Source: Escherichia coli (lineage in GTDB: Bacteria; Pseudomonadota; Gammaproteobacteria; Enterobacterales; Enterobacteriaceae). From it: 64,000 nt of DNA. The stretch lies in NCBI RefSeq assembly GCF_003018115.1, contig NZ_CP027457.1. The stretch is one strand, 5' to 3'. The position numbers were made by a program, and so were the translations under genes. Under the pieces are notes generated by a model. That model saw nothing but the letters and a program-made list of their open reading frames with translations, did no database searches and was not told the DNA's origin. This document shows positions 1,523 to 56,355 of the stretch, piece by piece (the first letter of the stretch is position 1; each line of letters opens with the position of its first letter).

Positions 1523-1545
1523 ACATACAATAATTAATTGCACTG

Positions 1546-1755: not shown

Positions 1756-1768
1756 ATCATTCAATGCA

Positions 1769-2800: not shown

Positions 2801-3490
2801 ATGAGCAACCAAGGCGAATACCCCGAAGATAATCGGGTTGGGAAGCACGAGCCGCACGATTTTAGTTTGACCCGTCGCGATCTGATTAAAGTGAGCGCCG
2901 CAACGGCGGCGACCGCCGTGGTTTATCCTCATTCTACGCTTGCGGCAAGCGTTCCGGCAGCTACACCCGCGCCTGAGATAATGCCCCTGACACTTAAGGT
3001 GAACGGCAAAACCGAGCAGCTTGAAGTGGATACCCGAACCACGCTACTGGACGCTTTGCGTGAAAATCTGCATTTGATCGGTACCAAGAAAGGTTGCGAT
3101 CACGGACAGTGCGGAGCCTGTACCGTGCTGGTCAATGGTCGCAGGCTTAATGCCTGCCTGACGCTTGCAGTCATGCATCAGGGGGCCGAGATCACCACCA
3201 TTGAAGGCCTGGGTTCACCAGATAATCTTCACCCCATGCAGGCGGCCTTTATCAAGCATGATGGCTTCCAGTGCGGCTACTGTACCTCCGGGCAAATTTG
3301 CTCATCAGTAGCGGTGCTAAAAGAGATTCAGGACGGCATTCCCAGTCACGTCACGGTCGATTTGGTTTCCCCTCCAGAAACAACTGCCGATGAGATCCGT
3401 GAACGTATGAGCGGCAACATCTGTCGCTGTGGTGCATACGCTAACATCCTTGCCGCCATTGAAGACGCTGCGGGGGAGATAAAATCATGA
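2801..3490 (+). CDS. paoA: Aldehyde oxidoreductase 2Fe-2S subunit PaoA, Tat-exported
   Basis: 229 aa; twin-arginine motif TRRDLIK; Cys motifs CDHGQCGAC and CGYC typical of 2Fe-2S ferredoxin subunit. Confidence 0.9.
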
Positions 3491-6638: not shown

Positions 6639-6647
6639 GGAGGAACA

Positions 6648-7604: not shown

Positions 7605-7663
7605 TCCTTGCGGCCGGGCGTGGAAAGCGCTTTCTCACCTCCGGGGGAAATACCATAAATTAA
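7583..7663 (+). pseudogene. 26-codon N-terminal stub of a MobA/MocA-like nucleotidyltransferase
   Basis: GAGGAGGATTC-ATG then MPAPVVLILAAGRGKRF (LAAGxGxRF motif), stop after 26 codons; overlaps paoD end. Confidence 0.4.
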
Positions 7664-7782
7664 GAGAAAAATCTGCAGTAGCCGTTTTAGAAAATCACCT
7701 AAATCATTTAAAAGAGCGACCTACCCATAGTGGGTGCTCATCGCCTTGTGTAACTTATTCAGCAACGCGCGCCCTCGCCGGA

Positions 7783-8976: not shown

Positions 8977-9051
8977 AGTGAAATTTCACAAAGATCAGGA
9001 TAAAAGCCACCTGCCATAGACCGGTGGCTTTGCATCAATTCAGGAGAGGTT

Positions 9052-10188: not shown

Positions 10189-10374
10189 AAAAATCCCCAT
10201 AAAAAACAACAGAGAGATACAGGTTTCCGACGGACAACGCTGCGGTGCTTTACTTTGATGGGGTCATTATAGTGAGCAGAATTAGTGCTGATTAGGGGGC
10301 GATTAATGCTAAGATTAATACCATATTGTTATAAATTAATGCGGAGATTGCCGGCATGAAGGGGGGATGTTTCA

Positions 10375-11259
10375 ATGGCGAAAAGGGAGAACTACAACGA
10401 GCTGTACCTGTTTATGCAGGTGGTGCGGGAAGGCAGCTTTACCGCAGCGGCTCAGCGGCTGGGTCTTGCTCAGTCAGGAGTCAGCCGTTCTGTTCGCGAG
10501 CTTGAAGAAAGGCTGGGTGTCCAGCTGCTAGTGCGCACCACGCGTAAACTGTCGCTGACACAAGCAGGCGAGCAGCTCTACCAGAAGACGGCATCTGGAT
10601 TTGAAATGTTAGATCTTGGGCTTGCCACACTGGCGCACTATCGAGAGACGCCCTCCGGCACGGTGCGTATCAATGCCAGCCAGCACGCGATTGATAAATG
10701 CCTGCTGCCAAAGCTGGCGGTATTTAAACAGCGATATCCTGATATCCGGCTTGAACTGATAAATGAGAGCCGGTTCGTCGATATCATCGAGGAAAGATTC
10801 GATGCAGGTGTCCGCCTGGGGCCTGAAGTCGGCCAGGGTATGGTCGCGGTACGCATCACGCCCGATATGGAGATGGCAATTGTGGGGACTCCGGAACATT
10901 TTCGTCGTTATGGTTTTCCGCAAACCCCGGCGGATTTAAAGGCGCATCCCTGTATCGCCTATCAGTTTGCCGACGGCAGCGTATACCAGTGGGAACTCAA
11001 TCAGGATGATAAAAAAATCACTCATCGCCCTGAAGGGCAATGGGCCCTATCCGACAGCTATATGGAAGCAGAAGCCGCCCGGCTGGGCCTCGGATTGGCC
11101 TATGTTCCTGTTGAACTGGTCGCGGATGATTTAGAACACGGTAACCTTATCAGGGTGTTGCAGCGTTACAGCCTGCGAATGGAGGGATTGTTTCTCTATT
11201 ACCCTCATCGCAACGTCTCCCCCGCTCTGCGGATGGTCATTGATACATTGAAAATCTGA
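10375..11259 (+). CDS. LysR-family transcriptional regulator
   Basis: 294 aa; N-terminal HTH FTAAAQRLGLAQSGVSRSVRELEERLG; divergent from hydrolase-MFS genes. Confidence 0.85.
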   Translation: MAKRENYNELYLFMQVVREGSFTAAAQRLGLAQSGVSRSVRELEERLGVQLLVRTTRKLSLTQAGEQLYQKTASGFEMLDLGLATLAHYRETPSGTVRINASQHAIDKCLLPKLAVFKQRYPDIRLELINESRFVDIIEERFDAGVRLGPEVGQGMVAVRITPDMEMAIVGTPEHFRRYGFPQTPADLKAHPCIAYQFADGSVYQWELNQDDKKITHRPEGQWALSDSYMEAEAARLGLGLAYVPVELVADDLEHGNLIRVLQRYSLRMEGLFLYYPHRNVSPALRMVIDTLKI

Positions 11260-11968
11260 ACGTTAACAACGACCGACTCTTCACTGTGCAATATTGTGTC
11301 AGGTAGTCACTCTGCGTTCAATTCCAGGGGCCGCTTTGAGCGAGAAAGAGCGGACTTATCTGTATAAGGGGACTATCCAGCAATGGAGATCACCCAAAAG
11401 AAAAAACTACCTGGCTCCCTCAACAACCTTCATCCGGGAATTTAGCCTCAATCAACATTTTTATATCTGTCAGGTTACTTCATTATGAAAACCGATCAAT
11501 ATCGTTGTTTTTGTAGTAATAATAGAATACGCGTATTTATTCCTCCATTTCTATTAATAACAGCCATAAACTGTTCACTTCACTGATATTTAAAATATGC
11601 ATCCTTTTCCTGCTTTTCAAGTTGTTCAGCGGCGTAAGAAAACGTATTAAATATGAATTCGACGATTTAACCATTTCTGTCTGATTGGTAATCATCTGTG
11701 ATTAATGCTGGTCTATTGATTACGCCAGCATTAACCGCTTAGGGATGTATTCTTCCTGATCATATACAGCCCTCGAAAAAGAGAGAAAATAAAACTGTGT
11801 CCAATATTACTCTACCACTCCAGACCGAAGCATCGGTAGAATTAGCAGAACGACTGGTACAGAAGGTGGGTATAGCGTCATTTGTCGGGCATTCCATTGC
11901 CATCATAATGATAATTTTGAATCAATAGACGTGCTTCTTGATCATGTCTTAAAATTATACCATGAGCC

Positions 11969-12199
11969 TTATGAAGCATCATTTTTACTGACTGGTGTTA
12001 ACTTTGCTATCATATAAACTCTGTTCTTAAAAAACGCGCCCAGAATTTTATATGATTTCCCTTGTTTTTCTGCCTGTAAAGAAATTTCTTTTTCAGTGCT
12101 GTCAATAGTTGAACCGACGGCAGTAATCGTTTTGGCGACGCTACTGAATGATAATAAAGACAGTGCAACCACAACAATTAAAGAACAGATAGTATTCAT
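11969..12199 (-). CDS. Small secreted protein, DUF1471 (BhsA/McbA/YdgH-like) candidate
   Basis: Signal peptide MNTICSLIVVVALSLLSFSSVA then ~55 aa mature domain; start at internal Met of ORF 11969..12247. Confidence 0.45.
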   Translation of the reverse strand: MNTICSLIVVVALSLLSFSSVAKTITAVGSTIDSTEKEISLQAEKQGKSYKILGAFFKNRVYMIAKLTPVSKNDAS

Positions 12200-12412
12200 G
12201 CTAATTCTCCTGACAATTAAGAGGATGAGTTTTATATATAAAGGCATTAAACATGAGTCATATTTACTTCCTGTGAAAATAATCTTTCTGTAATTAAACC
12301 TTCATCTCCTTCGGGGTGAGCAATACATAATGCATCTTGCTATGAAAAACACAGGGATATATAAATCTTCCTTCTGACCTATTTAATAAAACGTGAATGT
12401 AAAAGTTATTCT

Positions 12413-13135
12413 TCAGTTTGCAGATGCAGTGGGTCTGATGGTAATTTCGGTTGTATCAACGCTTTCGGGAGATTCAATAATATGCCTTACCGCACGGGCA
12501 ATATCCGCAGGTTGAAGTGCAACAGAACGGTAGGAGTCCATTGCCTTCATGGTTTCCACATGGGTAATGGTTGAAGCCAGTTCACTTTCGACAACGCCAG
12601 GATTTACGCAGGTCACACGGATTTTCGAGCTTTCCTGCCGTAAGCCATCAGAAATAGCCCGTACTGCAAATTTTGATGCACAATAGACTGCGCCTGTGGG
12701 CACAACAGAAAGGGCACCAATAGAACCAAGATTGATTATCTGACCGGAACCCTGTGCTTCCATCACCGGAAGTACAGCGCCAATTCCCCACAGTACACCT
12801 TTGATATTCACGTCAATAGTGAGCGCCCATTCATCTTGTTTTCCTGCTGCAAGCGGTGAAAGCGGCATAACGCCCGCATTATTGATAAGAACATCAACTC
12901 GCCCCCAGCTATCCAGCGCTGCTTGCACGAAATCGGCCATGGACTGTCGGTCTGTGACATCCAACTCCCGCGCTTTAGCAATTCCTCCTGCGCGGCAGAT
13001 TTCGGTTGCAATGGCTTCGATACGCTCAACTCTGCGTGCTCCCAGTAAAACCTTTGCACCTGTCGTTCCAAGCTCTCTGGCAATACCTTCCCCAATACCA
13101 CTTGATGCGCCGGTAATTAATATGACCTTATCCAT
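12413..13135 (-). CDS. Short-chain dehydrogenase/reductase (SDR)
   Basis: TGASSGIG NAD(P)-binding motif, YCASK catalytic motif; start at MDKVILITG. Confidence 0.85.
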   Translation of the reverse strand: MDKVILITGASSGIGEGIARELGTTGAKVLLGARRVERIEAIATEICRAGGIAKARELDVTDRQSMADFVQAALDSWGRVDVLINNAGVMPLSPLAAGKQDEWALTIDVNIKGVLWGIGAVLPVMEAQGSGQIINLGSIGALSVVPTGAVYCASKFAVRAISDGLRQESSKIRVTCVNPGVVESELASTITHVETMKAMDSYRSVALQPADIARAVRHIIESPESVDTTEITIRPTASAN

Positions 13136-13233
13136 TACGTTCTCCTTCAAATGTGTTCGGAGAGAGAATAGAACTTTATGATTGGTTCCAGTATCCTGCT
13201 TTCAATGTACTCAGTGGTTAGCGGCATTAAACA

Positions 13234-14133
13234 ATGAAAATCGATCTTAATCTTTTACCCATTTTTATCGCGGTAGCAGAAGAGAGTAATTTTAGTAAAG
13301 CCGCCGCACGACTGGGCGTTACCCGTTCAGCGGTCAGTCAGGGAATAAGACGTCTTGAAGATGCATTCGGGACAATGCTTGTAATGCGGACCACGCGCTC
13401 AGTTAATTTGACGGAAGCGGGAGAACGGCTGCATAAATCGTTGTCATTACCTTTATCCGGTATTGAGGCAGCGTTCGAAGAGATGGTCTCTGACCATGTA
13501 CCACGTGGACATCTCAGAATCGCGGTGACGTCGATAGCAGAAGAATTTCTTTCAGGTCCGCTAATCGCTTCGTTTGCAGCTGCCAATCCAGCCGTTACGC
13601 TTGATATTGTTGTCACGGATGAGGAATTCGATATCGTTGCCGCAGGTTACGATGCTGGCGTAAGGCTCGGAGAGGTCATTGAAAAAGACATGATTGCTGT
13701 TCCCCTTACCGGCAGGCAGCGTGAAATGGTCGTTGCCTCTCCCTCCTATCTCGCAGCCAACAGCACACCTGTTCATCCGCGTGAACTTGTGAATCATAAG
13801 TGTATCGGCTGGCGTCAGTCCCCGGAGGTTGCGCCTTATCGCTGGCCATTTGAAGAAAACGGGAGAGCTTTCGACCTTGCGATTGAACCGCAGATTACGA
13901 CTAATGATCTGCGTCTGATGTTGCGGCTGGCTCTTGCCGGTGGAGGAATAACAATTGCCACTCAGGAAACTTTCAGGCCGTATATTGAAAGCGGTAAGCT
14001 TGTATCTCTGCTTGATGACTTTCTTCCACAATTTCCGGGCTTCTATCTGTATTTCCCACAGCGTCGCAATATTGCACCAAAGCTCCGCGCCCTGATTGAC
14101 CACGTCAAGGAATGGCGGCAGCAATTGGCTTAA
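13234..14133 (+). CDS. LysR-family transcriptional regulator (possibly the intact counterpart of K-12 yagP fragment)
   Basis: 299 aa; HTH FSKAAARLGVTRSAVSQGIRRLE; divergent from SDR. Confidence 0.8.
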   Translation: MKIDLNLLPIFIAVAEESNFSKAAARLGVTRSAVSQGIRRLEDAFGTMLVMRTTRSVNLTEAGERLHKSLSLPLSGIEAAFEEMVSDHVPRGHLRIAVTSIAEEFLSGPLIASFAAANPAVTLDIVVTDEEFDIVAAGYDAGVRLGEVIEKDMIAVPLTGRQREMVVASPSYLAANSTPVHPRELVNHKCIGWRQSPEVAPYRWPFEENGRAFDLAIEPQITTNDLRLMLRLALAGGGITIATQETFRPYIESGKLVSLLDDFLPQFPGFYLYFPQRRNIAPKLRALIDHVKEWRQQLA

Positions 14134-14259
14134 ATGTCTGCACCTACATTGCCTGATGTCAGAACAGTATTTTGATTAATTGCCAGGGTTACAATGGCAC
14201 AAATACGGCACAGGAGGAAACGTGGTGTATTTAAATATGGGGTAACTACTTGATTTAAA

Positions 14260-14335
14260 TGGTGCCGATAATAGGAGTCGAACCTACGACCTTCGCATTA
14301 CGAATGCGCTGCTCTACCAACTGAGCTATATCGGC
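14260..14335 (-). tRNA. thrW: tRNA-Thr (anticodon CGU)
   Basis: Reverse complement reads GCCGATATAGCTCAGTTGGTAGAGCAGCGCATTCGTAATGCG...TTCGACTCCTATTATCGGCACCA; cloverleaf with CGT anticodon and CCA end. Confidence 0.9.
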
Positions 14336-22963: not shown

Positions 22964-23268
22964 TTATACTCGTCATACTTCAAGTTGCATTTACTGCGAC
23001 TGCGTTCGTTCACCCCAGTCACTTACTTATGTAAGCTCCTGGCGATTCACTCGCTTGTCGCCTTCCTGCAACTCGAATTATTTAGAGTATATAAATATAA
23101 AAATCAGGAAATGGCAGACGAATCCAGGGCAAGAAAAAAAGAATTAATCCTGGAAAGGTCTGCAAAGAGTCATTGATAAAGGATTTGTCATGATTTACCT
23201 CCTTGCAGTTTGTGGAATAAGAAAACGCGCACATACCAGGCGGGCGTTATTTTCATTGCAAGCTGGAT

Positions 23269-23721
23269 TTAATGTTGCGGTTTATATCGCATATAAAAAT
23301 TAGTAAACCACGCTCCCCGGCATTCAACGCGCTGCTGCTTAACTGTCTGAAAACCATAACGTTCAAAAAAGGGTTTTGCGGTTATGCTGGCATCTACCGT
23401 AAGTTCGGATTCAGACTTAATCAATGGTTTTAACAAGGCGCTGGCAACCCCGCGGCGGGTGTATTCAGGGTCAACAAATAACATATCGATATAACGTTCA
23501 ATGCGGGAAATAAAACCAACCGGTTGTGCATTAATGACGGCAACCCGCACTTGTGATTTCGCGAGTTTCTCCTTCCAGCGAGATTCGTCAATCTGCGCCC
23601 AGGCGGCAATTTGTTGTGGAGAATAGTGCTGACTGGAGGTCATCGTAACCGCTCTAATGAAAATAGCGCATAGTTGCTGAAAATCGCCAGGCTGATAGTT
23701 TCTTATTTGTATGTTATTCAT
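23269..23721 (-). CDS. yafP: GNAT family acetyltransferase YafP
   Basis: 150 aa [25 protein letters not shown]; ATG overlaps dinB stop. Confidence 0.9.
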
Positions 23722-24773
23722 AATCCCAGCACCAGTTGTCTTTCCATTTGCGGATCCAGCAACGTCACATGCAGCCCCACCAGTCGCACACCGCGCCCGC
23801 CGCGGCGTTCATCCCAGGTTTTACGCGCGGTGGCGATTAAGTCAGCTTTATTCAGCCGCGGCCAGACGTGCTCCTGGGTGGTTTGCTGAAAATCGTCGAA
23901 CTTTAATTTCACCCCCTGGCGAGCAATCAGTAAATCAGGTTTTACCTTTGCCAGACGGCGTTCAAGTTCCGGATACAGCCGCTCGATAATCGCTTCACAT
24001 TCAGACCAGTGATGAATATCTTCCGCCATCGTGCGTTCCACGCCGACGGATTTTCGCAACCGTTCGCTGTTAACATCGCGTTCGTCAATCCCCTGACTAC
24101 GCTCCCACAAAATGCGGCCAAATTTGCCAAAGCGTTTAAGCAGCATCACCAGATCACACTTTTGTACATCACCGCAGGTCCGCAGCCCCATCGCTTCCAG
24201 TTTTGCCGCCGAGACTTTGCCGACGCCGGGGATTTTTGCCAGTGGTAAGGTTTGTAAAAATGCCGGAACTTCTGCCGGCGTAATCACAAACTGGCCGTTG
24301 GGTTTATTCATGTCGGAGGCGATTTTGGCGAGAAACTTTACTGGTGCCACGCCCGCAGACGCCGTCAGTTGCAGCTCGTTGAAAATCGTCTGGCGGATTT
24401 CCTGGGCAATGAGGGTCGCAGAACCGTGGCAATGGACGCTGTCGGTGACATCGAGATAAGCCTCATCCAGTGACAACGGCTCAATGCGAGAGGTGTAGCG
24501 CGAGAAGATTTCACGGATATGATTTGAGGCTTCTTTGTAGGCGTCAAAGCGCCCCGGAAGCAAGGTGAGATGTGGGCATAATTTGAGCGCCATCCCTGTC
24601 GGCATAGCGCTGCGTACGCCAAATTTACGCGCGGGATAATTAGCGGTGCTGATCACCCCCCGACGTTCGCGGCTGCCGCCAATAGCAATAGGGATATCGC
24701 GCAGGGCGGGATTGTCGCGCATCTCCACTGCGGCGAAAAAGCAGTCCATATCCACATGAATGATTTTACGCAT
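23718..24773 (-). CDS. dinB: DNA polymerase IV
   Basis: 351 aa [33 protein letters not shown] (Y-family polymerase). Confidence 0.95.
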
Positions 24774-24787
24774 TACTCACCTCTCAA

Positions 24788-24805
24788 CACTGGTAAAGTA
24801 TACAG
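24788..24805 (-). promoter_or_regulatory. LexA (SOS) box upstream of dinB
   Basis: Reverse complement CTGTATACTTTACCAGTG fits CTGT-N8-ACAG. Confidence 0.75.
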
Positions 24806-25575: not shown

Positions 25576-25599
25576 GCTTTCACGCTCGGATTTACTGAC

Positions 25600-27313
25600 G
25601 CTGTTGACAATCAACTTTATCGTCGTCACCAAAGGGGCCGAGCGTATTTCCGAGGTTTCTGCCCGCTTTACCCTGGACGCGATGCCCGGCAAACAGATGG
25701 CGATTGACGCCGACCTTAACGCCGGGTTGATCAACCAGGCGCAGGCGCAAACCCGGCGTAAAGATGTCGCCAGCGAGGCCGATTTCTACGGCGCGATGGA
25801 CGGGGCGTCAAAGTTTGTGCGCGGGGATGCCATCGCCGGGATGATGATTCTGGCAATCAACCTGATCGGCGGCGTCTGTATCGGGATCTTCAAATACAAC
25901 CTGAGCGCCGACGCCGCCTTCCAGCAATATGTGCTGATGACCATCGGCGATGGGCTGGTGGCGCAGATCCCTTCCCTGCTGCTCTCCACCGCGGCGGCGA
26001 TTATCGTCACCCGCGTCAGCGACAACGGCGATATCGCCCATGACGTGCGCCACCAGCTGCTGGCAAGCCCGTCGGTGCTCTACACCGCTACCGGGATCAT
26101 GTTCGTGCTGGCGGTGGTACCGGGGATGCCGCACCTGCCGTTTTTGCTGTTCAGCGCCCTGCTTGGTTTTACCGGCTGGCGGATGAGCAAACGCCCGCAG
26201 GCGGCAGAGGCGGAAGAGAAAAGCCTCGAAACGCTAACCCGCACCATCACCGAAACCAGCGAGCAACAGGTCAGTTGGGAAACCATTCCGCTGATCGAGC
26301 CCATCAGCTTAAGCCTCGGCTACAAACTGGTGGCGCTGGTGGACAAAGCGCAGGGCAACCCGCTCACCCAGCGGATTCGCGGCGTGCGGCAGGTGATTTC
26401 TGACGGCAACGGCGTGCTGCTGCCGGAGATCCGCATTCGGGAAAACTTCCGCCTCAAGCCGAGCCAGTACGCCATTTTCATCAACGGCATTAAGGCCGAT
26501 GAAGCGGATATTCCGGCGGATAAACTGATGGCCCTGCCCTCCAGCGAAACCTACGGCGAGATAGACGGCGTGCTGGGGAACGACCCGGCGTACGGGTTGC
26601 CGGTGACCTGGATCCAGCCTGCGCAGAAAGCGAAGGCGCTGAATATGGGGTATCAGGTGATCGACAGCGCCAGCGTGATTGCCACCCATGTGAATAAGAT
26701 TGTACGCAGCTATATTCCTGATTTGTTTAACTATGACGACATCACACAGTTGCATAACCGTTTGTCGTCGATGGCACCGCGCCTGGCAGAAGACTTAAGC
26801 GCGGCGCTGAATTACAGCCAGTTGCTGAAAGTGTACCGGGCGTTACTGACCGAAGGCGTTTCCCTGCGCGATATCGTCACCATCGCCACCGTGCTGGTCG
26901 CCAGTAGCGCGGTGACCAAAGATCATATTCTGCTGGCAGCCGATGTGCGCCTGGCGCTGCGGCGCAGCATTACCCATTCGTTTGTTCGCAAGCAGGAGCT
27001 GACGGTGTATACGCTGAATAATGAGCTGGAAAATCTGCTGACCAACGTGGTGAATCAGGCGCAACAGGGCGGGAAAGTGATGCTCGACAGCGTGCCGGTC
27101 GCCCCGAATATGCTCAACCAGTTCCAGAACACGATGCCGCAGGTAAAAGAGCAGATGAAAGCGGCGGGGAAAGACCCGGTGCTGCTGGTGCCGCCGCAGC
27201 TTCGCCCTTTGCTGGCGCGCTATGCGAGATTGTTTGCGCCGGGACTGCATGTGCTGTCGTATAATGAAGTGCCGGACGAGCTGGAGTTGAAGATTATGGG
27301 GGCGTTGATGTAA
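25600..27313 (+). pseudogene. lfhA: lfhA (fhiA) FlhA-like flagellar export protein, 5'-truncated; Flag-2 remnant
   Basis: Homology starts mid-protein (NFIVVTKGAERISEVSARFTLDAMPGKQMAIDADLNAG); lacks N-terminal TM domain. Confidence 0.75.
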
Positions 27314-27319
27314 GAATCC

Positions 27320-27500
27320 GGCATCGGTGCACAATTGCCGGATGCGGCGTGAACGCCTTATCCGGCCTACCGTTCAGGCACAGGTTTCCAGGCATGATAA
27401 GACGCGCCAGCGTCGCATCAGGCATCCGCGCACAACTGCCGGATGCGGCACAGATTTGTAGGCCGGATAAGCGTAAGCGCATCCGGCACCAGCGCACAAT
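27320..27500. repeat. REP/BIME cluster (several REP units)
   Basis: Repeated GCCGGATGCGGCGTGAACGCCTTATCCGGCCTAC-type palindromes. Confidence 0.85.
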
Positions 27501-27997
27501 TATAAAATAATACGCTCGCCAGCATTTAAATCCGTTATGTCTCCCGCCCAATCGATGGGATATAACCCTCGCGCAACATCGCGATGGAACGTTGAGAATG
27601 GCCAATCACACACCTGCTTAACCCAGCCATGTTTCACTGGATTTATATAAATATAATCAACATGATGCCGATAATCTTTTGTATTACGGATGGCATGCTC
27701 CCAAAAACGCGGTTGCCAGATATTTTTCAATCCGCAAGCATGGGTGAACTGCTTTTTAATCTCTCTCCAGCGCGAGGAAAAATCATCATCGCCTTCAGGT
27801 AATGTCCATATGCAATGCATATGCTCTGGTAAAACGACCCAAGCGTTGATTTCAAAAGGTCTGTCTCGCTTAACTTTAATAATAGCGTTACGGAGCATCT
27901 GGAACTGAGCGGTCAGAAGGTGGCTTCGACGATTTCGTAGGTTAACCGTGAAAAACCAGGTTCCCCCCTTGATGTAATACCGACGATATTCAGACAT
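27500..27997 (-). CDS. rayT: REP-associated tyrosine transposase RayT (TnpA-REP)
   Basis: 165 aa; IS200/IS605-like HUH transposase fold, flanked on both sides by REP sequences. Confidence 0.85.
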   Translation of the reverse strand: MSEYRRYYIKGGTWFFTVNLRNRRSHLLTAQFQMLRNAIIKVKRDRPFEINAWVVLPEHMHCIWTLPEGDDDFSSRWREIKKQFTHACGLKNIWQPRFWEHAIRNTKDYRHHVDYIYINPVKHGWVKQVCDWPFSTFHRDVARGLYPIDWAGDITDLNAGERIIL

Positions 27998-28059
27998 AGC
28001 GACTCCTTTTTCTCAACGGTAAGAAGAAAAGGAAAGGTCGGCAATGAGGTGATGGAATA

Positions 28060-28170
28060 ACGGGAAAGCGGCTCGCAAAAACGCACAAATTTGTAGGCAT
28101 GATAAGACGCGTCAGCGTCGCATCAGGCATCCGTGCACAACCGCCGGATGCGGCGTAAACGCCTTATCCG
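28060..28170. repeat. REP cluster
   Basis: TGTAGGCATGATAAGACGCGTCAGCGTCGCATCAGGCATC...GCCGGATGCGGCGTAAACGCCTTATCCG. Confidence 0.85.
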
Positions 28171-28172
28171 TC

Positions 28173-28922
28173 CTACAAAATCGTCTCCTCCGTCAAAATC
28201 CGTCGCGCGCCTAAAAAATGATCCTGCCAGAAAGGTTCAGCTAACCGACTTACCCGAATGGTTTCCCCGGTGCGCGGTGACTCAATAAACTGACCGTCTC
28301 CCAGATACACCCCCATATGGTCGGCAATCTCACGACTGTGAATATGGAAAAACAGCAAATCTCCCCGGCGCAGGTCGTTGTTCGCCACAATCGTTGCCCG
28401 ATGGTAGTGATACATCTCATTGGCTGTGCGCGGGAGCTTAGCCTCAAGGATCTTGTTGTAGGCATAAAAAACCAACCCGCTACAGTCGAAGCCTTTATCG
28501 GGCCGCGTGCCGCCCCAGACGTAAGGCTTGCCAAGTTGCTGTTCCAGGCGGTGAATCGCCACTTCGGTGATGTTATGCAGATGGTCACTGCTTAGAAAGT
28601 GGTTGTTTTCCGCCAGCGCCTGCCAGCGTCTGTCACTCGCCTTGAGCGGTGCAGGAAACCATTCTGGATGCTGTTTTATCTGCTCCCGGTTGTGCTGGCG
28701 TAGCGCCCTTCTGCTTTCGGCATTGCCTTCCACAATATAGCTGGCCTGTTTTTTCAGATGGGTTTGGTACTGTTTTAATAAACGCGCACGGTTTTGCATC
28801 CGCTGGCGGGCGGCGTAGCTGAAAGAGATATGTGATGTGGTGGCGCTGGCAAATGAAGAAAACGGCAAACAAATCAACAGTAATCCCGACAATACAAAGG
28901 ATGGAATCGACGGCAAGGACAT
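28173..28922 (-). CDS. yafL: NlpC/P60 family lipoprotein peptidase YafL
   Basis: Signal/lipobox region MSLPSIPSFVLSGLLLICLPFSSFA; C-terminal NlpC/P60 Cys-His domain (DCSGLVFYAY...H); start at internal Met. Confidence 0.8.
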   Translation of the reverse strand: MSLPSIPSFVLSGLLLICLPFSSFASATTSHISFSYAARQRMQNRARLLKQYQTHLKKQASYIVEGNAESRRALRQHNREQIKQHPEWFPAPLKASDRRWQALAENNHFLSSDHLHNITEVAIHRLEQQLGKPYVWGGTRPDKGFDCSGLVFYAYNKILEAKLPRTANEMYHYHRATIVANNDLRRGDLLFFHIHSREIADHMGVYLGDGQFIESPRTGETIRVSRLAEPFWQDHFLGARRILTEETIL

Positions 28923-31369: not shown

Positions 31370-31505
31370 GGTCGGATGCGGCGTGAACGCATTATTCGGC
31401 CTACGGTTCGCGTACAGATTTGTAGGCATGATAAGACGCGTCAGCGTCGCATCAGGCATCAGCGCACAAATGCCGGATGCGGCGTAAACGTCTTATCCGG
31501 CCTAC
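31370..31505. repeat. REP/BIME cluster
   Basis: GGATGCGGCGTGAACGC...TGTAGGCATGATAAGACGCGTCAGCGTCGCATCAGGCATC...GCCGGATGCGGCGTAAACG. Confidence 0.85.
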
Positions 31506-36685: not shown

Positions 36686-37822
36686 TTACGAAAGCCCGCT
36701 CCCCGCAAGGACTGACGCCAGATAGTTTCTGTCCATGGCTGCTTTTCGCATCTTACGTCTTAACCCTGCCTTGAATACCTTATCATTCGTCAAAATATTA
36801 ATAGCAATGTGCCGTATCCCTGAAAATAATTCCGCTGCATTTCCTCTTCTTATTCTGCAGTCGTCTTCATTCATTACCACGTCCAGGCGCCAGTGCAGCT
36901 TATTTTCCACGTGCCAGTGATTTCGGTTCGCTGTGGCGAACTTCTCTGCAGTTAAATCAGCAGAGCTGATATAATATCTGACCGTCATTTCGGGTTCTTT
37001 CTTTTGTTCTGCTATTATTGACCGAAAGGAGACTGCCACGCATAATTTCTTCAGCCCTTTCCATTCAAACGTGAAATCAATAAGTTCATCAGGGACATCG
37101 CAAACAATATGAAGACGGATTTCTTCTCTGCCGTGACTCTTTTCACTGATTGCGTAACTGTCATGCTCTGGATTATTTAATTCTTTCAGCGGAAATTTTT
37201 CCTCAAAGGCTTTATTTAGCCGCCCCTGGTTTCCTTTTACCGCGAATAAATAATCACCTCCCTGTTTTTGTATCTTCTCTGCAATATCTTTCTGGCAACC
37301 CATCGCATCAGTTGTGATGATTTTTCCTTTAATATCCAGCATGTTAAGAAGTTCTGGGATAGCTGTAATCTCATTAGATTTCTCATCCGTCCTGATCTGT
37401 CCGATGACCAGACTGTGCATTGTTGAGAACGCACTAATGACATGAATCGCTCCCCTGCGGCGACTCTTGTCATAAGAGTGCCGGAGCGTTTTTCCATCAA
37501 TTGCAATGACGTCTTTATCATCTGAAGAATGGCAGTCACGCATCCAGTTAATAAAGCACTCGTGAAATTTTGCAGGACTGATACAGGATACAACTCTGGC
37601 AATGGTATCGTGAACAGGAATACCATTTTCAAAATCACCATATTGCTTCAAAAAATCGAGATGTGTTTCCCCAAAATCCTCTATATCTTCCCAACCCTCT
37701 GCACCAGAAATGACGGCACAAATAGTCAACAGTAGAATATCTGACAATTTATGTTCTACTTTCCAGGCTTGTCTGTAATCGGGGATAATAGAAATATGTT
37801 CCATCAGTTTTTTAAGTTCCAT
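36686..37822 (-). mobile_element. ISAs1-family transposase (H-repeat-associated protein), complete
   Basis: 378 aa [60 protein letters not shown]... DDE transposase typical of Rhs-associated H-rpt. Confidence 0.9.
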
Positions 37823-38290: not shown

Positions 38291-38668
38291 TCACTCCTGA
38301 CCAAAATTTTTCCACACTAATGCATGAGACTTTGATTTGTCACCCAGAAATTTACTTACATCTTGCCAAAGTAAAGAATTGCTATCGGTCGCAGTGACTA
38401 TTGCCTCTATAAGCCCTGTAGCTACAACTGTGGCCAATTCATCATCAAGCGAGACCATACCATCTTCGACATGTTTAAATATTTTTTCTCTTTCAATATC
38501 CCCCATTTCATAAAAATTTTTTACAATCGTTTTTCCAACCTGAGAGAACAACATAACCACCGGTGGCGTTTCTGGATGCCAGTATTCATTAGCTAATGAG
38601 ACTGTCTCAGACAAAACAGTGGAAAATGATGCCATTTTTTCTATATAACTAGCAATATATTGGTTCAT
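38291..38668 (-). CDS. Putative Rhs immunity protein (RhsI), family unassigned
   Basis: 125 aa acidic ORF whose ATG shares one base with the Rhs stop (TAATG); AT-rich like the Rhs CT. Confidence 0.7.
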   Translation of the reverse strand: MNQYIASYIEKMASFSTVLSETVSLANEYWHPETPPVVMLFSQVGKTIVKNFYEMGDIEREKIFKHVEDGMVSLDDELATVVATGLIEAIVTATDSNSLLWQDVSKFLGDKSKSHALVWKNFGQE

Positions 38669-41600
38669 TACTTGCCTCCCAAAGCATTCTGTAAATCCTG
38701 AAGAACGTTTTCTGCTGCTGCTCGATCCCCTGGAGATGCTGTTGGATTCTTATCCAACCAATCCTGTAAAGCCCTTGTATAATCCTGTGCTTTCAATACA
38801 TGTCCTCTACCACCAACTTTTTCACCTGTGGCCAATTCATAACGAACAGCATCTGCTGTGCTTCCACTTCCTACTTTTGCATTTGGCCGATAAAGATCGT
38901 CTATAATATTTTTCAAATTTGAATCTGTAACGTCGGGTTTTCCCATTTTCTGTCGCAATTCATCTTTATACCGTTCATGCTGCATACGATCCCTTGCGCT
39001 ATTCTCATCTTCTGGTCCCCATCCTCCCGGGCTTCCCGTACTGCCGCCGGCCAGGCAGTTCTTCTCTTCATCCGTCAAATCCTTCCCAACATTCGGCTGA
39101 CTCCCTGACGAATTATCATTCTCATGTGGGCTATCTAAAGGACAACTACTGGTCCAGTAACACATTTCAGCCTGAGAATTTATTAACTGCCCATCGCTCA
39201 GAGCCTTCCCGGCACGCCCATCATTAGCGAGAAGGTCATATCCCATTGGCCCAGCGACCACAGCCATTGCTCCAAGAGCAGGGGCAGCAGACGCCATAGC
39301 CGCCGTGACTGCATCAAAAGTCGCCGCCCCACCCGAAAGTAACGCCCCCCCAAATTCTGTTCCTGTTACTGTTGTGGCAGAACCAAGAACCAGTGTCTCA
39401 CCAGACAACCCAAGAGGATCCCCCCGCTGCACCGGGTTCAGCGGATACGCATACAGGTTCCATCCCCCCTTCAGCCCAATGGGATCCTGGGTGATATAGC
39501 GTCCCTGCAACGGATCGTAGTACCGGTTCCGGTTATAGTACAGCCCCGACTCCTCATCATACTGCTGCCCCGGCAGACGGAGTGACTGTTGAAGGTGCTG
39601 CGCGCTGGTTTCGCCCAGCAGGTTTCCCCACTCGTCATACTCCCCCTGCCACGCCGTTTCCCCTTCCGGGCTGATGAGCGCCAGCGGCAGTCCCCGGTGG
39701 TCGCAGTGGTAAAGATGAAGTTTCCTCTCCGGGATGTATTCCGCCTCCAGCTGTGCGGCCATCTGCTCCGCCGTCAGCCCGCACTGCGCAAGCCATGCCT
39801 CACTCTCCGCACTCACCGCTCCCGCGCGCAGTTCCCGCTCCAGCCTCCCCAGCATCACCGACAGCTCCGCCGGTAGCGTCACACCCGTGTCCTCCTGCAA
39901 CACCTCCGCCAGGCTCCGGTGCCGCGCCTTCGCCTGTTCGCCATTCTCTGTTTCGATTCTCAGGAGCGGCGTGAAGCTCCCCGGCTGGTATACCGTCTGG
40001 ATACGCGTGGTGCCGGTCTGTATCGTCGTCAGCCTGTCACCGTCCCACCCGTACCATGTCACCTCCGGTTTACGCGACAGCGACATCCACCCCGTCAGGT
40101 CACGCTCCCGCCGCCATACCCGTTTTCCCGTCCGGCGGCCCAGCGGGTCATAGAGGTACCGGCTCTCCACCTGTGGTTCGCCGTGCTGTATCCGCGTGTA
40201 GAACACCAGGCGGTGCTGGCTGTCGTAGTGATAGTGGTGGGTGCGCTCGTCGTGCATCCGGATAACCCCTTCCGGGATACGGTCCGTCTTCTCCGCCAGC
40301 CTGCCGTATTCATCGTGGCGGTAGACATAGTGCGCATCCTCCGCGATGCGGTTATCCGGCCACGCCGTGAGCGTGCTGTCCGGGTGCAGTTCCGGGTCCG
40401 GCAGCCGGTTTCCTGCCGGGTCCGTCGCATACGGGATATCAATGTCCAGGTTCGCTGCCGTGGTGTGGACGCCCGTCAGCCTTCCCGTGCCGCTGTAACG
40501 GTACTCCCGGCTCTCCTGCGGGCCGCTGATGCGGATTAGCTGTCCGTTGTCGTTCCACGTATACTCACGGTCAAGCTGCGGAAGGTTCAGGTGCCTGCTC
40601 CGGAGCTGGCCGCTGGTATTCCAGGCGGTGGCAAGTTCATATGCCTCCCCGCCGAAGCTGCGGGCCGTCTCACGGTGCAGCCGGTCCCGCGTGTACTCGA
40701 CCAGCGGCGTTCCGCCCAGCTTCATCCCCGCAAGATAACCGCTGCCATACGTCAGCCACTCCACCGGCGGCAGACCGTCCGGCTCCTGACGGGTCGCCAG
40801 CCCCTGTTCGCTGTACGCATGCCCCGTCTCATGCTCCCACAGCATCTCCCCCGTCTCCGGGTTCTCCACCGTCTGCCGTTCGCCCGTCAGGCGGCCTTTA
40901 TCGTCATAGCCGTAGTGGACCGACACGCGGTGGCCTTCACTGGTATGGCTGAGGGTGGTTAACCACCCGTGCTCATCATACTGCCACTGCTCTGCCGGGT
41001 CGCCGTTCACCGTCCGGTGCGTGATGCGGTCCGACGCATCGTAGTGCCAGAGGGTGATAAGCCCCTCGTCTTCACTCTGCGTGAGTTTTCCGGTCAGGTC
41101 ATAGTGGTAACGTTGCGTCCGGCCGTCAAAACCGCGCTGTTCAGTCAGCCTGTCCACCGGGTCATACCGGAACGTGGACTGGCTGCCGTTCTCGTTGGTC
41201 AGCACGGTGATGCGCCCGGCAGCGTCATACCCCATGCTGCGCGTAAGACCGCCTTCCGTCACACTCACCGGACGCCCGTGTTTATCATATTCGATGGTGC
41301 TGCGTTTACCGTCCGGTGATATCGTTGCTGTCAGGTCGCCTGCGGCGCTGTACTCATAACGGATTTCACGCCCCTGCGCATCCTTCTGACTGACCAGTTG
41401 CCCACGCGGGTTATAACTGCTGTAAGTGCTGATGCCTTCCTCCCGGTGAACGGCGATTTGTTGACCGTACCAGTCATACTCATACCGCGTCGTGTACCCC
41501 GAGCAGTCCGTGAAGGCCCGAAGCTGACCGTACCGGTTTCGCGTTATTCTCCGCGTCACCCCGGTTCCGTCTTCCACCGCGCCGGGCAGGCTACTGCGGG

Positions 41601-43173
41601 GGGAGTCATAAAACCAGCGCGTAATGTTACCGTTGCGCGAGGTCTCTTCTGCCAGTCGGCCCTGACGGTCATATTTCCGGTTGCTGCGTAAACCATCCGG
41701 ATATGTCACTGAAGTCAGTTGCAACTGGCTGTTGTAACCATACCGTACCGTCCTGCCGTCCGGCAGTATCACTGAAGTCAGCTTTCCAGACGCCATATGC
41801 AGCCGGTACTCCGTCCGCCGCCCCGCCGCATCCGTCTGCGCCTTCAGCCTCCCCGCCTCATCATACTCGCTGCGGGTGATGCTCCCGTCCGCATGTTCCT
41901 TCTTCACCACACGCTTCAGGCCACCTTCGCCCTCCGTGTACAGCACCTCCCGCCGGTTCAGGCTGTCCGTGATGGTCACACGGTCCTGCCCGTACTCAAA
42001 GCGGTAGTCCAGCCCCTCCGGGTTGACCTGTTCTGTCACCCGACCGGTATCATCATACCGGTAGCGGCTCTCCGGCCTCCCTGCATAATGGTGCGCCACC
42101 ATCCGCCCGGCGTGCTGCACATCATAAGTAAACCCGCGCACCTGCGTCCCGCTGCGGTCATACACCGCCCGCAGTTCTCCGCTGGCCGTGTACGTGTAGC
42201 GCGCCAGCGGCGCAGTCGGCTGTTCATCCGGGTATGCCGGGTCGTGTGTCAGCCACACCGCCTCCAGCCGGATACCGTTATCGGCACCGTACTCTGTACC
42301 GGCGGGCAGCGTGTCGGGGAAAGCTGAAGAAAAGGAAGAAGAGGAAACAGAACGGGGACTGGCCGGGGAAGATAAGGAAGACTCGCGCTGTTTACGGAAG
42401 GCTTCCGCCCGCTGCGCCTGTGTGGTCAGCGCCAGGTGAAAACGGCGGCCCGCGCCGTCCGTCACCCCCGTCACCGCGCCCGCCACGTCACCCTCCGCCG
42501 CCCTGTGAAAGGCCAGCGTCCGACCAAAGCCATCCACCACGCCCGTCAGCACCCGGTATGCGGGCGGCTCCGGCGGCAGCACCTCGTCCGCCTCCGGCAC
42601 CCGCTCCGGCCAGCTGAGCACCAGCCACTGCCCGGTTGTGCTGACAGCCATCATATAGGTGTGTGGACTCAGACGGACCGCTTCCGGCAGCGCCCGCCAG
42701 AGCCGGGCCAGCGGGTGGCCTTTGTGTTGTTTCAGCACCCCACCCCTTGCCAGCCAGAGTGACTCGCTGCGGCTGTAGCTTATCTCGCCGGGAAACAGCG
42801 GCTCAAAGTGAATGCTCCTGCCGCCGTTGTCGTTGAGTATCAGTTCCCGCTCATGAATCTGTAAGCGGATATCAAAGGGGGCTTTCCAGCCGGGGCCAAA
42901 CACCCCCACCGGCGCGGGCGTCCTGGTCCGGTAACTGCTGTAGGCACGGGAAAGAATGAACGGCAGCGGGCCGGGCAGCGCAAGGTCCGTCTCGCCCGGC
43001 AGCACCTTCGCACCCAGTAGCGGGTTCACCGGGTTAGCATAGGTAATCCCTCCCGGACACACCGAGCAGGCCACTCCCGTCGGCGCACCTATCAGCACCC
43101 CCGCTGAACCCTGCACAATATCCAGTCCCTTGCGGGTCATATCACCCTGCCGCGCCGCCGGTTTTCCGCCCAT
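38668..43173 (-). CDS. rhs: Rhs-family polymorphic toxin: N-terminal PAAR-like region, YD-repeat core, variable C-terminal toxin domain
   Basis: 1501 aa; N-term [12 protein letters not shown]...[10 protein letters not shown]; many YD repeats; core ends [27 protein letters not shown]; ~245 aa CT encoded at 38671..39405. Confidence 0.9.
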
Positions 43174-43248: not shown

Positions 43249-45390
43249 TCAAAATTGCCGCATATCCGGCATTCCGGGGGGTAAATCTTTCGGCACAGGC
43301 GCATCCGGTACAGGTTGTGTGGCACCACAGTTCCAGTTAATCACCGGCGCATCACCGTTCACATCCGACTCCCCTTCCAGATGAATGTGCGTACCATTAA
43401 GAAATATGCTTCCGTCCTTCGTCAGCACCAGCCTTGCCTTACCACAGCAGAGTTCAAGATGCTCACCGGCAGAATAAACTGCTGTTTGTCCGGTGTTTTC
43501 CTTCATCGTCTTGCCCACCGAGAAGGTGACGTTATTCCCTACATTGACGCTGTAGCCCATTCCCACCATCAGTGATTTATGCAGCCCTACCTGTGAGGAC
43601 TGCAACAACGCCACCGAGGTATTCATAATGCCGCCTACCGTCGTCTGATACGCCACACCCACCGTCAGCGCACGAATGATCCCCACCTTTTCAACCTGGT
43701 TTGATCCCACTTTGATAATCTGGTTACTGCCCACCGTTTCCACCTGGTTGACACCAACCGTCTGTATCTGATTAACGCCAATGTTCTGGATCTGGTTATT
43801 GGTAACGGTGATCGCCTGGTTGTTACCTATTTTTTCGGCATGGTTGTTTATCACATCAGTGGTGCGGTTATTCAGCACCTCGGTGTTCATGTTCTTCTGC
43901 GCGTGGATGTAGACCTGTTCTTTCCCTGTCGCATCGTCAAACTTCAGTTCATTAAACCCGCTGCCCTTATAGGTTTTCGAACGAATGGTCATCTGCGTCT
44001 TTGTTCCCGGCAGGCTGCCGGGTGTGCGGTTTTCCTGGTGGTAGGTGCGCCCCATAATGATCGGCTGGTCCGGATCGCCGTTGAGGAAGTCCACAATCAC
44101 CTCCTGACCCACACGCGGTATCGCCAGGTTACCAAACCCGGTGCCTGCCCACGCCTGTGCCACACGGATCCAGCATGAACTGTCCTGGTTTGACGGGTTA
44201 TAGCGGTCCCAGTTAAATTTCACCCGCACGCGACCATGTTCGTCGCAGAAGATTTCCTCGCCTGCCGGTCCCGTCACGACGGCGCTCTGCGGGCCATCCA
44301 CCAGCGGTTTCAGCAACGGCTGTGGTCGCCATGTTCTGTCTGCCGGTATTACCGCAAAATGGTTATCCAGCGTGGTGCCTGAACCCCTGCGTCCCGGTAC
44401 CGCCTGCGGCTGTTCGCCGTGAAGATCGCTCGCCACCACCTGCCATTCCCGGTTCAGGTTCGCCTGCGGATGCCCCGTCAGCACAATTCGCCGTCCCGGC
44501 CATATCTCCGGCGAACGGCTTGTTCCGCGCGCCACTTCTGCGTTGTTTCGCCAGCCATCCATCTGCCAGCGGGCAAAGTTCTGCCCGTGGGCACCCTTGA
44601 AACGTCCGGGGTAGTCATACACTTCATACTGTGTGCGCTGGTAATCCTGGTACTGGCCTTCCTGATCAAAACGCCCTGCCCAGCCGGGTCGTTTAAAGGT
44701 GTAGTCTTTGGTCACCACGGAAGAAGGGCGGATTTGTGCGCTGTAGCGAAACTGGCTGATGCAGAGGGTGCTTACCTCGGTACGGGTGTTCGGATTCCAG
44801 GGGATCTCAAAGGACTCCGGCAGATAACGCACGGTATCGCACAGGACCAGGCTCTGGTCGGTACTTTTTTGCGCGTGCTCCTCATAAAAGAAGATGCCTT
44901 CCTCCGCCGCCATCCGGCACAGGAAATCGTAATCAGTCTCACCGTACTGGACACAAAACTCACGGGAAGGATGCGGTTCACTGAACAGCGGACTCCACTC
45001 GGTCACCCCGTTTTCCTGCAATATCGTGCCGAGGATGCTTTTGATGTCCTCGTTCTGGAAGATACGGAAGTTCTGGCGCAGCCCTGTGCGCCACAGCGGC
45101 GGGCATACCTTCATGCTGTACAGCTTCTGGTTTTTGTCGTTCTCCCCCAGTTCAAACCAGGTCACCACACCTTTCACCCGGCGCTGTACGTCATCGCCCT
45201 GCCATATCGTCAGGTAGGCCATTTTGTCGAGGATCTGCTGGAATTCAAGGGAGAGAAACTGCTGGCTGACCAGAGAGAGAGCGAGGGAAAAAAGCGAAGA
45301 GAGTGACTGGTTCAGATGAAAGGAGACCACCGCAAAAGCATCCGGTGGCAGGCCGTCCACTTCCAGCGTGAAACGTAATCCGGTTGACAT
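43249..45390 (-). CDS. vgrG: Type VI secretion spike protein VgrG
   Basis: 713 aa; gp27/gp5-like VgrG; 75 bp upstream of rhs. Confidence 0.9.
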   Translation of the reverse strand: MSTGLRFTLEVDGLPPDAFAVVSFHLNQSLSSLFSLALSLVSQQFLSLEFQQILDKMAYLTIWQGDDVQRRVKGVVTWFELGENDKNQKLYSMKVCPPLWRTGLRQNFRIFQNEDIKSILGTILQENGVTEWSPLFSEPHPSREFCVQYGETDYDFLCRMAAEEGIFFYEEHAQKSTDQSLVLCDTVRYLPESFEIPWNPNTRTEVSTLCISQFRYSAQIRPSSVVTKDYTFKRPGWAGRFDQEGQYQDYQRTQYEVYDYPGRFKGAHGQNFARWQMDGWRNNAEVARGTSRSPEIWPGRRIVLTGHPQANLNREWQVVASDLHGEQPQAVPGRRGSGTTLDNHFAVIPADRTWRPQPLLKPLVDGPQSAVVTGPAGEEIFCDEHGRVRVKFNWDRYNPSNQDSSCWIRVAQAWAGTGFGNLAIPRVGQEVIVDFLNGDPDQPIIMGRTYHQENRTPGSLPGTKTQMTIRSKTYKGSGFNELKFDDATGKEQVYIHAQKNMNTEVLNNRTTDVINNHAEKIGNNQAITVTNNQIQNIGVNQIQTVGVNQVETVGSNQIIKVGSNQVEKVGIIRALTVGVAYQTTVGGIMNTSVALLQSSQVGLHKSLMVGMGYSVNVGNNVTFSVGKTMKENTGQTAVYSAGEHLELCCGKARLVLTKDGSIFLNGTHIHLEGESDVNGDAPVINWNCGATQPVPDAPVPKDLPPGMPDMRQF

Positions 45391-56347: not shown

Positions 56348-56355
56348 GGACGTTT

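Follow-up and report, generated by a model that had tools for sequence, protein, structure and literature searches.

We report, with high confidence, that the locus at the centre of this study is the canonical Escherichia coli REPtron, that is, a single-copy, domesticated rayT gene with BIME-2 elements on both sides, lying between yafL and the lfhA remnant. It was found in a stretch of E. coli DNA 64,000 nucleotides long, which is referred to below as the window. The REPtron is a known feature and serves as the model system for REP-associated tyrosine transposases. The locus, its variation among strains, the loss of the gene or its replacement by hicAB, and cleavage and strand transfer in vitro have all been published (Ton-Hoang 2012, PMC3333891; Messing 2012, PMC3479197; Corneloup 2021, PMC8266576), and both the name REPtron and the idea that such a locus spreads REPs and BIMEs derive from the literature on this very site (PMC3333891). 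With architecture, strain variation, structure and in vitro chemistry in print, the value of the locus as a discovery is small. The analysis does provide an exact annotation, unit by unit, of a rare rayT allele and of its 3' BIME array, in which decay has taken three forms: one unit is without its GTAG, one was cut down by a microhomology deletion and one has a shorter stem. Such units might be used as a naturally occurring set of substrates for probing the recognition rules of RayT. The case also shows that a REPtron can be recognised from raw sequence, as it was in the initial annotation of this DNA.

The interval 27250-28250 holds a single intact open reading frame of 165 codons on the minus strand, with an AAGGAG Shine-Dalgarno sequence preceding its ATG. 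The initial annotation called this gene rayT, and the call stands: a PDB sequence search returned a full-length match of the product to 4ER8_A, 'TnpArep' (E=2.5e-113), and the product scores 178.7 bits on the NCBIfam model NF047646, 'REP-associated tyrosine transposase' (cutoff 80). On the IS200 equivalog NF033573 it stays below the cutoff (13.1 against 55). Pfam at its default threshold returned no family for RayT, and a search at E<=10 gave only Y1_Tnp (PF01797), at 14.7 against a gathering score of 23; the identity of the protein was settled instead by the NCBIfam and PDB searches. E. coli F9792 is 100% identical to the window over 27250-28250, and RefSeq likewise annotates that identical sequence as rayT, with yafL on one side and, on the other, a truncated pseudogene of the flagellar flhA type (lfhA/fhiA). 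The opening 200 nt of the F9792 locus have no verbatim match in the window, which we therefore do not equate with that strain.

At the nucleotide level the gene is 91.2% identical to rayT of K-12, and its product has about 95% (94.5%) amino acid identity to the crystallised K-12 protein (PDB 4ER8). The differences, nine in 165 residues, lie at positions 26, 30, 32, 37, 130, 154, 157, 158 and 165, and none of them affects the active site, which in TnpAREP is made up of Y115, H59-M60-H61, N119, H123 and E161 (Messing et al. 2012, PMC3479197). RayT of the window keeps every one of these residues (HUH motif, catalytic tyrosine and metal ligands) and, with the 4ER8 and NF047646 matches, is a member of the Y1 HUH RayT/TnpAREP clade. 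The dN/dS of rayT, about 0.05-0.10, indicates that the protein is maintained by purifying selection. In the grouping of Bertels 2017 and Corneloup 2021 (PMC8266576), the protein belongs to RAYT group 2, being 95% identical to the group 2 model protein and accompanied by predicted bulged hairpins; a group 2 RayT is thus paired with bulged, imperfect REPs of group 2, and the classes of enzyme and repeat agree.

Short, GC-rich palindromes, copies of one another in both direct and inverted orientation, stand on either side of rayT, and the initial annotation had read them as two REP clusters with the gene in between. Following Ton-Hoang et al. (PMC3333891) in their 5' GTAG convention, we delimited the units as shown in Table 1.

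Table 1. Genes and REP units at the rayT locus and in the third REP cluster (window coordinates; folding energies in kcal/mol, z-scores against shuffles).
Feature	Position	Strand	Description	Hairpin energy	z
lfhA (fhiA)	25595..27313	+	pseudogene, Flag-2 remnant; conserved neighbour, 3' side of REPtron		
A1	27336-27370	-	REP class y, 35 nt, intact	-12.2	-4.40
A2	27388-27424	+	REP class z2, 37 nt; 5' GTAG changed to CCAG; hairpin intact	-9.7	-3.52
A3	27437-27449	-	y remnant, 3' 13 nt only		
A4	27458-27488	+	short unit, 31 nt, GTAGGCCGGATAAGCGTAAGCGCATCCGGCA	-10.7	-4.71
rayT (yafM, tnpAREP)	27500..27997	-	intact ORF, 165 aa; Y1 HUH REP-associated tyrosine transposase		
B1	28093-28129	+	REP class z2, 37 nt, GTAG intact	-9.7	-4.69
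B2	28142-28176	-	REP class y, 35 nt, intact, GTAGGACGGATAAGGCGTTTACGCCGCATCCGGCG	-9.0	-2.65
yafL	28173..28922	-	C40 peptidase; conserved neighbour upstream of rayT, co-directional		
C1	31370-31404	-	REP class y, degenerate; no stable hairpin predicted		
C2	31422-31458	+	REP class z2, intact		
C3	31471-31505	-	REP class y, weaker upper stem		

Folded as single-stranded DNA, units A1, A2, B1, B2 and C2 share one hairpin, in which the four 5' bases (GTAG) are left unpaired and a 2x2 internal loop, with AA opposite GC, separates a lower from an upper stem; its energies run from -9.0 to -12.2 kcal/mol and its z-scores from -2.7 to -4.7 against shuffles. GTAG joined to an imperfect AA/GC palindrome is present in A1, B1 and B2 of the REPtron and in C2 of the third cluster, and is lacking in A2 (CCAG), A3 (truncated), A4 (one-sided bulge) and C1 (degenerate). 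A1 shows no differences from what we take to be the y consensus. It also includes the 21-mer GATGCGGCGTGAACGCCTTAT, which Park et al. 2021 used as the seed for counting REPINs in E. coli. The unit lengths of 35 and 37 nt agree with those published for the E. coli classes y and z2, respectively (Corneloup 2021, PMC8266576), and the first 32 nt of B2 are identical to the oligonucleotide that was co-crystallised with TnpAREP (Messing et al., 4ER8). By length, 5' GTAG, AA/GC loop and identity to the co-crystal oligonucleotide, then, the flanking palindromes are of REP class, as had been supposed.

Searches of other kinds lead to the same place. When the entire 64 kb was scanned with a profile HMM made from the units, eight of them were found, at E values from 1.6e-5 to 4.8e-11, all in three intergenic spots, two of them the flanks of rayT; in the same scan the A3 remnant has E = 0.31, and the window gave no further REP, all other matches having E>=0.3. 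Two simple pattern searches for REPs outscore all shuffles. On the Rfam family naRNA4 (RF02564; gathering score 59.5), which is named for a transcript of the REP325 array (Qian et al. 2015, mBio, PMC4550694), the B1-B2 pair scores 72.7 bits over 28096-28173 on the minus strand and the third cluster 74.1 bits, and the left array reaches only 48-49 bits, under the gathering score. The repeats are also dispersed at high copy number: in the median E. coli genome, a 1-kb query matches 35 places or more, and the rayT coding sequence alone matches one. The REP count published for K-12 is 584 (PMC3333891).

Read along the rayT sense strand (the minus strand of the window), the order is the yafL stop codon, B2, B1, a 95-nt spacer with AAGGAG, rayT, an 11-nt spacer, A4, A3, A2, A1 and the convergent lfhA stop codon, so that REP units come within 95 nt of the start codon and 11 nt of the stop codon and stand on both sides of the gene. 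B2 is the leading REP of the 5' BIME, and the TAG within its GTAG is the stop codon of yafL; B1 is inverted with respect to it, tail to tail, and the two form the sole BIME-2 on the 5' side (28093-28176). The linkers measure 12 nt between units lying tail to tail and 17 nt between units lying head to head. The alternation of orientations that is typical of BIME-2 is seen in each cluster: z2(+)/y(-) upstream of the gene, y(-)/z2(+)/y remnant(-)/short(+) downstream of it, and y(-)/z2(+)/y(-) in the third cluster. As to the extents first given for these clusters, the left one (27320..27500) is an adequate envelope, and the right cluster exists as claimed, but its interval (28060..28170) should begin 33 nt later and run 6 nt further, so as to take in the CTAC/GTAG. 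The third cluster had been placed between yafJ and gmhA with exact coordinates (31370..31505). It has the form y-z2-y, lies between lpcA (= gmhA) and yafJ with units identical to those of K-12, and is an ordinary BIME-2 outside the REPtron proper.

The 3' array (27336-27488) is partly decayed, with loss of GTAG in A2, truncation in A3 and shortening in A4, and with A1 intact. Alignment with K-12 traces the loss of GTAG in A2 to a GT-to-CC change, and the truncation of A3 to the deletion of 31 nt between CGGCA direct repeats. The counterparts of both units are intact in strain L73, and that of A3 is intact in K-12 as well; because both are intact in L73, the decay of A2 and A3 is recent and lineage-specific. 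A4, for which K-12 carries a z2 unit, is of another kind. Its foot is of the y type, its upper stem is shortened, and the AA bulge is on one side only; it folds well. Its features are mixed (the foot y-like, the length z1-like), its core is too short for megablast, and a search that includes its flanks finds it in 67 genomes only, with one or two copies in each.

How far do these arrangements hold in other strains? Loci were fetched and scanned with the same REP HMM, and their layouts are given here in the orientation of the window. K-12 and ST131 both read y z2 y z2, rayT, z2 y; L73, from the nearest allele group, reads y z2 y short, rayT, z2 y; and O157:H7 Wll001 reads y z2, a rayT pseudogene (W99*), z2 y. 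In SSGw2 rayT is absent and three contiguous BIMEs remain, and in KGu016 hicA-hicB replaces rayT and REPs are absent. The same neighbours, in the order yafL-rayT-lfhA (fhiA), are common to five strains (F9792, K-12, L73, O157 and ST131), as befits a single-copy gene at a fixed locus. Ton-Hoang et al. 2012 (PMC3333891) described a unique locus between yafL and fhiA, with one BIME upstream of the gene and a 3' side that varies, and reported precise excision of rayT in strains of the B2 clade and replacement by hicAB in the B1 clade. The variation seen here agrees with that account, including the rayT-less strain that retains its BIMEs, but the GTDB representative of E. coli, with z2-y-z2 upstream of rayT, is an exception to the 'invariably single' 5' BIME (PMC3333891).

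Among 5426 complete E. coli genomes, rayT was found in 3574, typically at one place (the median per genome) and never at more than two; it is thus missing from about one third. The allele of the window, which is of the O169:H41 type, is rare, with 5 records at >=99% identity and 47 at 95-99%, of 3581. Sixteen plasmid records carry rayT. Most of them are K-12 laboratory replicons of 214-242 kb, which we interpret as F-primes, or records of chromosome size, and with such replicons and chromosome-sized records filed as plasmids we reject these as evidence that the gene is mobile.

One scan of species-representative genomes yielded 80 loci with a rayT homologue, 73 of which were analysed. Closer than 350 nt to the gene, the density of hairpins with GTAG is 1.97 per kb, against 0.10 per kb beyond 700 nt, an enrichment of about 20-fold. 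Their sequences vary with the lineage (for example GTAGGCCGGATAAG..., GTAGCCCGGATG... and GTAGGGTGG...), and in most of them the internal mismatch is kept. Hairpins stand on both sides at 19 or more of the 73 loci, as counted by a crude detector, tuned to E. coli-like units, that comes out blank at many Klebsiella and Enterobacter loci, blanks that should not be read as absence of REPs. The arrangement with units on both sides is conserved in five lineages of E. coli, in E. albertii and in other Escherichia species. The survey reproduces the known association between rayT homologues and REPs, the first reports of which are credited in PMC3333891 and by Park et al. 2021 to Nunvar et al. and to Bertels and Rainey.

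How would such a locus work? RayT of K-12 binds single-stranded REPs in vitro, and not double-stranded ones, and needs both the GTAG and the stem mismatch to do so; its cleavage, which leaves a 5'-phosphotyrosine, falls at CT within linkers and the inverted REP, and its strand transfer can build tandem BIMEs (PMC3333891). The K-12 TnpAREP is monomeric and auto-inhibited and, in the structural study, was active only with manganese (PMC3479197). In this work, monomeric RayT grips a single-stranded REP hairpin through its 5' GTAG and the AA/GC bulge in the stem, cuts CT dinucleotides in a neighbouring inverted REP or linker with formation of a 5'-phosphotyrosine link at Y115, and can then join the cut end to another 3'-OH by strand transfer. 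Acting in trans on single-stranded DNA, such as the lagging-strand template, it would allow BIMEs to be excised, reinserted and tandemly amplified throughout the genome, and the rayT gene itself would stay in place while they spread.

Considering that the active-site residues and the 5' substrate are identical to those of K-12, we infer that RayT of the window has the same activity as the K-12 protein. Judged by the published rules, the sense strand of rayT carries two units that look like competent REPs, B2 and A1, and the opposite strand one, B1; three of the four units on the 3' side deviate from what is required of a REP that RayT can bind. Given the requirement for GTAG (PMC3333891), A2 is expected to have lost binding as a REP, and its other strand should still be usable as an inverted REP; A3 would by the same rules be dead as a REP, and A4 uncertain. 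As for the strand, the window plus strand has a net negative GC skew, and rayT of K-12 is on the forward strand at 249 kb. That position presumably belongs to the right replichore, going by the positions of oriC and ter. From the skew and from the strand and replichore of the K-12 gene, the rayT sense strand is probably the lagging-strand template, a weak indication that fits the single-strand model discussed in PMC3333891.

That RayT drives the proliferation of REPs is a hypothesis, supported in vitro and by comparative counts, and the comparative evidence does not all point the same way. In its favour, RAYT-carrying genomes of E. coli hold more REPINs according to Park et al. 2021, and the dN/dS of rayT is low. 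On the other side, Ton-Hoang 2012 (PMC3333891) found only minor differences in REP number when strains that have the gene were compared with strains that lack it, and neither REP nor rayT DNA turned up in circular form in a mobilome study. The auto-inhibition of TnpAREP, the absence of rayT from about one third of E. coli genomes, the rayT pseudogene of the O157:H7 strain and the decay of the 3' units in the window also count against an active role.

Among known systems, the REPtron of K-12 MG1655 has the same yafL-rayT-lfhA locus, gene orientation, catalytic residues and REP classes (y and z2), and the same single 5' BIME, composed of a y REP, which is the crystallised oligonucleotide, and a z2 iREP. 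The two differ in the 3' array, which is y, z2 with CCAG, truncated y and the short 31-nt unit in the window and y, z2, y, z2 in K-12. With insertion sequences of the IS200/IS605 family (IS608, ISDra2) the locus shares the Y1 HUH fold and chemistry, single-stranded substrates, subterminal imperfect palindromes and a 5' guide tetranucleotide; unlike them, rayT is immobile, single-copy, at a fixed locus and below threshold on the IS200 models. The REPIN-RAYT systems of Pseudomonas and Stenotrophomonas (group 3) likewise have a domesticated single-copy RAYT flanked by cognate GTAG palindromes that are dispersed genome-wide, but there the palindromes are perfect and the REPtrons often several, whereas the window has one REPtron, of group 2, with bulged, imperfect palindromes. 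Finally, the naRNA4/REP325 array (RF02564; PMC4550694) is built from a y-z2 pair of the same sequence and structure, and the 5' BIME and the third cluster score above the gathering threshold of the family; REP325, however, has six units, lies in the yjdMN operon and has no rayT beside it. The role proposed for REP325 in the nucleoid is disputed (2026 preprint).

The alternative that deserves the most attention holds that the flanking BIMEs are now mainly local elements acting at the level of RNA, and that their proximity to rayT is a historical relic rather than a pairing of enzyme and substrate. We regard this as possible but on balance improbable, and assign the same standing to the RNA-level roles that it would involve, namely 3'-UTR hairpins that stabilise the yafL and rayT transcripts, attenuation of read-through, or naRNA-like transcripts. 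The reading is plausible from the placement of the units at two stop codons and from the work on REP325, and it is compatible with the REPtron explanation. The 5' BIME lies exactly at the stop codon of yafL, upstream of rayT and on the same strand, and the 3' array starts directly after the short spacer that follows the rayT stop codon; a scan of 27250-28300 found no consensus site for a sigma-70-like promoter or an intrinsic terminator; and the naRNA4 matches fall on the transcribed (minus) strand. REP325, moreover, acts as a partly Rho-dependent terminator and as an mRNA stabiliser (2026 preprint), TnpAREP is auto-inhibited (PMC3479197), and BIMEs are kept in strains that lost rayT, both in the literature (PMC3333891) and in the layouts above. 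A relic, however, is hard to square with purifying selection on the RayT protein or with the roughly 20-fold enrichment of GTAG hairpins, of lineage-specific sequence, beside rayT homologues in many genera. The identity of the 5' y REP to the co-crystal substrate argues against a purely RNA-level role, as does the greater number of REPINs in RAYT-carrying E. coli genomes (Park et al. 2021).

Two further readings can be given next to no credence. If the locus were an autonomous insertion sequence of the IS200/IS605 type, transposing as a whole and carrying REP-like subterminal hairpins by accident, one would expect its IS-like layout, with a Y1 HUH gene between imperfect palindromes that bear a 5' tetranucleotide (PMC3333891), and the weak similarity of RayT to the IS200 models. 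But those similarities stay below both cutoffs (see above), the flanking repeats are found without rayT at dozens of sites, and the literature also rejects this reading (PMC3333891); copy number (a median of one, with at most two places) and the same yafL-lfhA position in every strain examined refute it. Chance juxtaposition of two common REP clusters around a small gene might be entertained in view of the abundance of REPs in K-12 and of the third, unrelated BIME only 3.2 kb away. There are, however, just three REP loci in 64 kb, and two of them abut rayT, and the recurrence of the arrangement in distant genera with different REP sequences is decisive, since the cross-species enrichment refutes chance.

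The segment that contains the REPtron is also unusually divergent. Over the 22 kb that can be aligned with K-12, identity is 97-99.6% except in a trough of 89-94% at 26.5-28.5 kb, the deepest in the alignable region, which is centred on rayT, the 5' BIME and the 3' half of yafL. In synonymous divergence (dS) from K-12, rayT reaches 0.46 and the rayT-proximal half of yafL 0.55, as against 0.04-0.06 for dinB, dpaA, yafJ and lpcA. Five E. coli alleles of rayT differ from one another by a dS of 0.24-0.64, comparable to the 0.22-0.46 between E. coli and E. albertii. Against L73, rayT and the 5' BIME are 97-99.5% identical and lfhA and yafL 91-95%, with the switches at the two REP clusters.

From these alignments, we read the lfhA-rayT-yafL segment as a mosaic, made by recombination among old haplotypes, in a region rich in presence/absence variation (Flag-2, dinJ-yafQ, hicAB/rayT). 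Hypermutation centred on rayT is an unlikely cause of the trough, considering that rayT is 99% identical to that of L73 and both flanks are 91-95% identical. It is also conceivable, though we hold it to be quite improbable, that the REP clusters are preferred junctions for the allelic exchange of a rayT 'cassette' between old haplotypes, for which a single comparison (that with L73) speaks, or that RayT/REP activity raises local mutation or recombination. Were either idea true, the REPtron would be a driver of the hypervariable segment and not a mere passenger in it. The nearest relative of the window's rayT allele is that of Escherichia sp. E1V33, at a dS of 0.105.

Over the 22 kb that can be aligned with K-12, the window's lowest identity falls within positions 26000-28600, around the REP-associated tyrosine transposase gene rayT, where it is 89-94% against 97-99.6% elsewhere. 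The divergence among rayT alleles of E. coli is considerable, with dS values of 0.24-0.64 that equal in size those obtained against E. albertii, and the nearest relative of the window's allele is that of Escherichia sp. E1V33. When strain L73 is compared with the window, identity is 99% in rayT and 91-95% in the flanks. The identity to L73 around rayT forms a mosaic, and the points at which it switches coincide with both REP clusters.

The content of the locus also varies among E. coli strains. The annotation of O157:H7 Wll001 gives rayT as a pseudogene interrupted by an internal stop, which our translation places at W99*, and the BIMEs on the rayT flanks are still present. SSGw2 is without rayT and yet keeps three contiguous BIMEs. 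KGu016 carries hicA-hicB where other strains have rayT, and a search of that locus for REPs found none. Both the replacement of rayT by hicAB and the loss of rayT with retention of BIMEs have been described (Ton-Hoang 2012, PMC3333891). At 91-94% amino-acid identity, rayT is also present in two records under the names of other genera, one titled Pseudocitrobacter faecalis DSM 27453 (L011) and the other a metagenome-assembled genome titled Collinsella sp. (L010). Because the flanks in both are 88-93% identical to the window at the nucleotide level and resemble Escherichia sequence, the comparison suggests that these assemblies are mislabelled or contaminated, rather than that rayT genuinely occurs there.

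Two ordinary BIME-2 pairs in the window exceed the gathering score of Rfam naRNA4 (RF02564), a family of nucleoid-associated non-coding RNA from REP325. In practice the model picks up generic y-z2 BIMEs, and a match to it should not be read as a sign of a specific sRNA gene. At the yafL end of the 5' BIME-2, the conserved GTAG of the class y unit REP B2 lies at 28173-28176 (-), and its final three bases are the yafL stop codon TAG, such that there is no spacer between the repeat and the coding sequence; the junction is arranged identically in K-12.

Elsewhere, K-12 has the toxin-antitoxin genes yafN-yafO between dinB and yafP, and these are missing from the dinB-yafP region of the window (about 23250-24800; 1020-2524 in comparison locus L001); the F9792 annotation has dinB and yafP directly overlapping. 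No match to the compared K-12 region was found for positions 1-14240; on the far side of tRNA-Thr, K-12 has ykfI and yafW, genes of CP4-6 type. Collinearity with the compared K-12 region is likewise absent across 36300-64000, and the most negative GC skew of the whole window lies at 36-48 kb.

Features in the window and at the rayT locus of two other E. coli strains
Feature	Record	Position	Strand
Rfam 'IS009' match	window	1565-1763	-
paoC	window	4440-6638	
MFS transporter	window	7783-8976	-
LysR-type regulator	window	13234-14133	
tRNA	window	14263-14335	-
naRNA4 match (Rfam, above gathering score)	window	28096-28173	-
naRNA4 match (Rfam, above gathering score)	window	31425-31502	-
ISAs1-family transposase	window	36686-37822	-
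Rhs core protein	window	38668-43173	-
VgrG	window	43249-45390	-
TssC, type VI secretion	window	47626-49101	
TssF, type VI secretion	window	49525-51375	
ClpV/TssH, type VI secretion	window	56242-59127	
rayT pseudogene	Wll001 (L004)	1209-1706	
hicA-hicB	KGu016 (L007)	1169-1796
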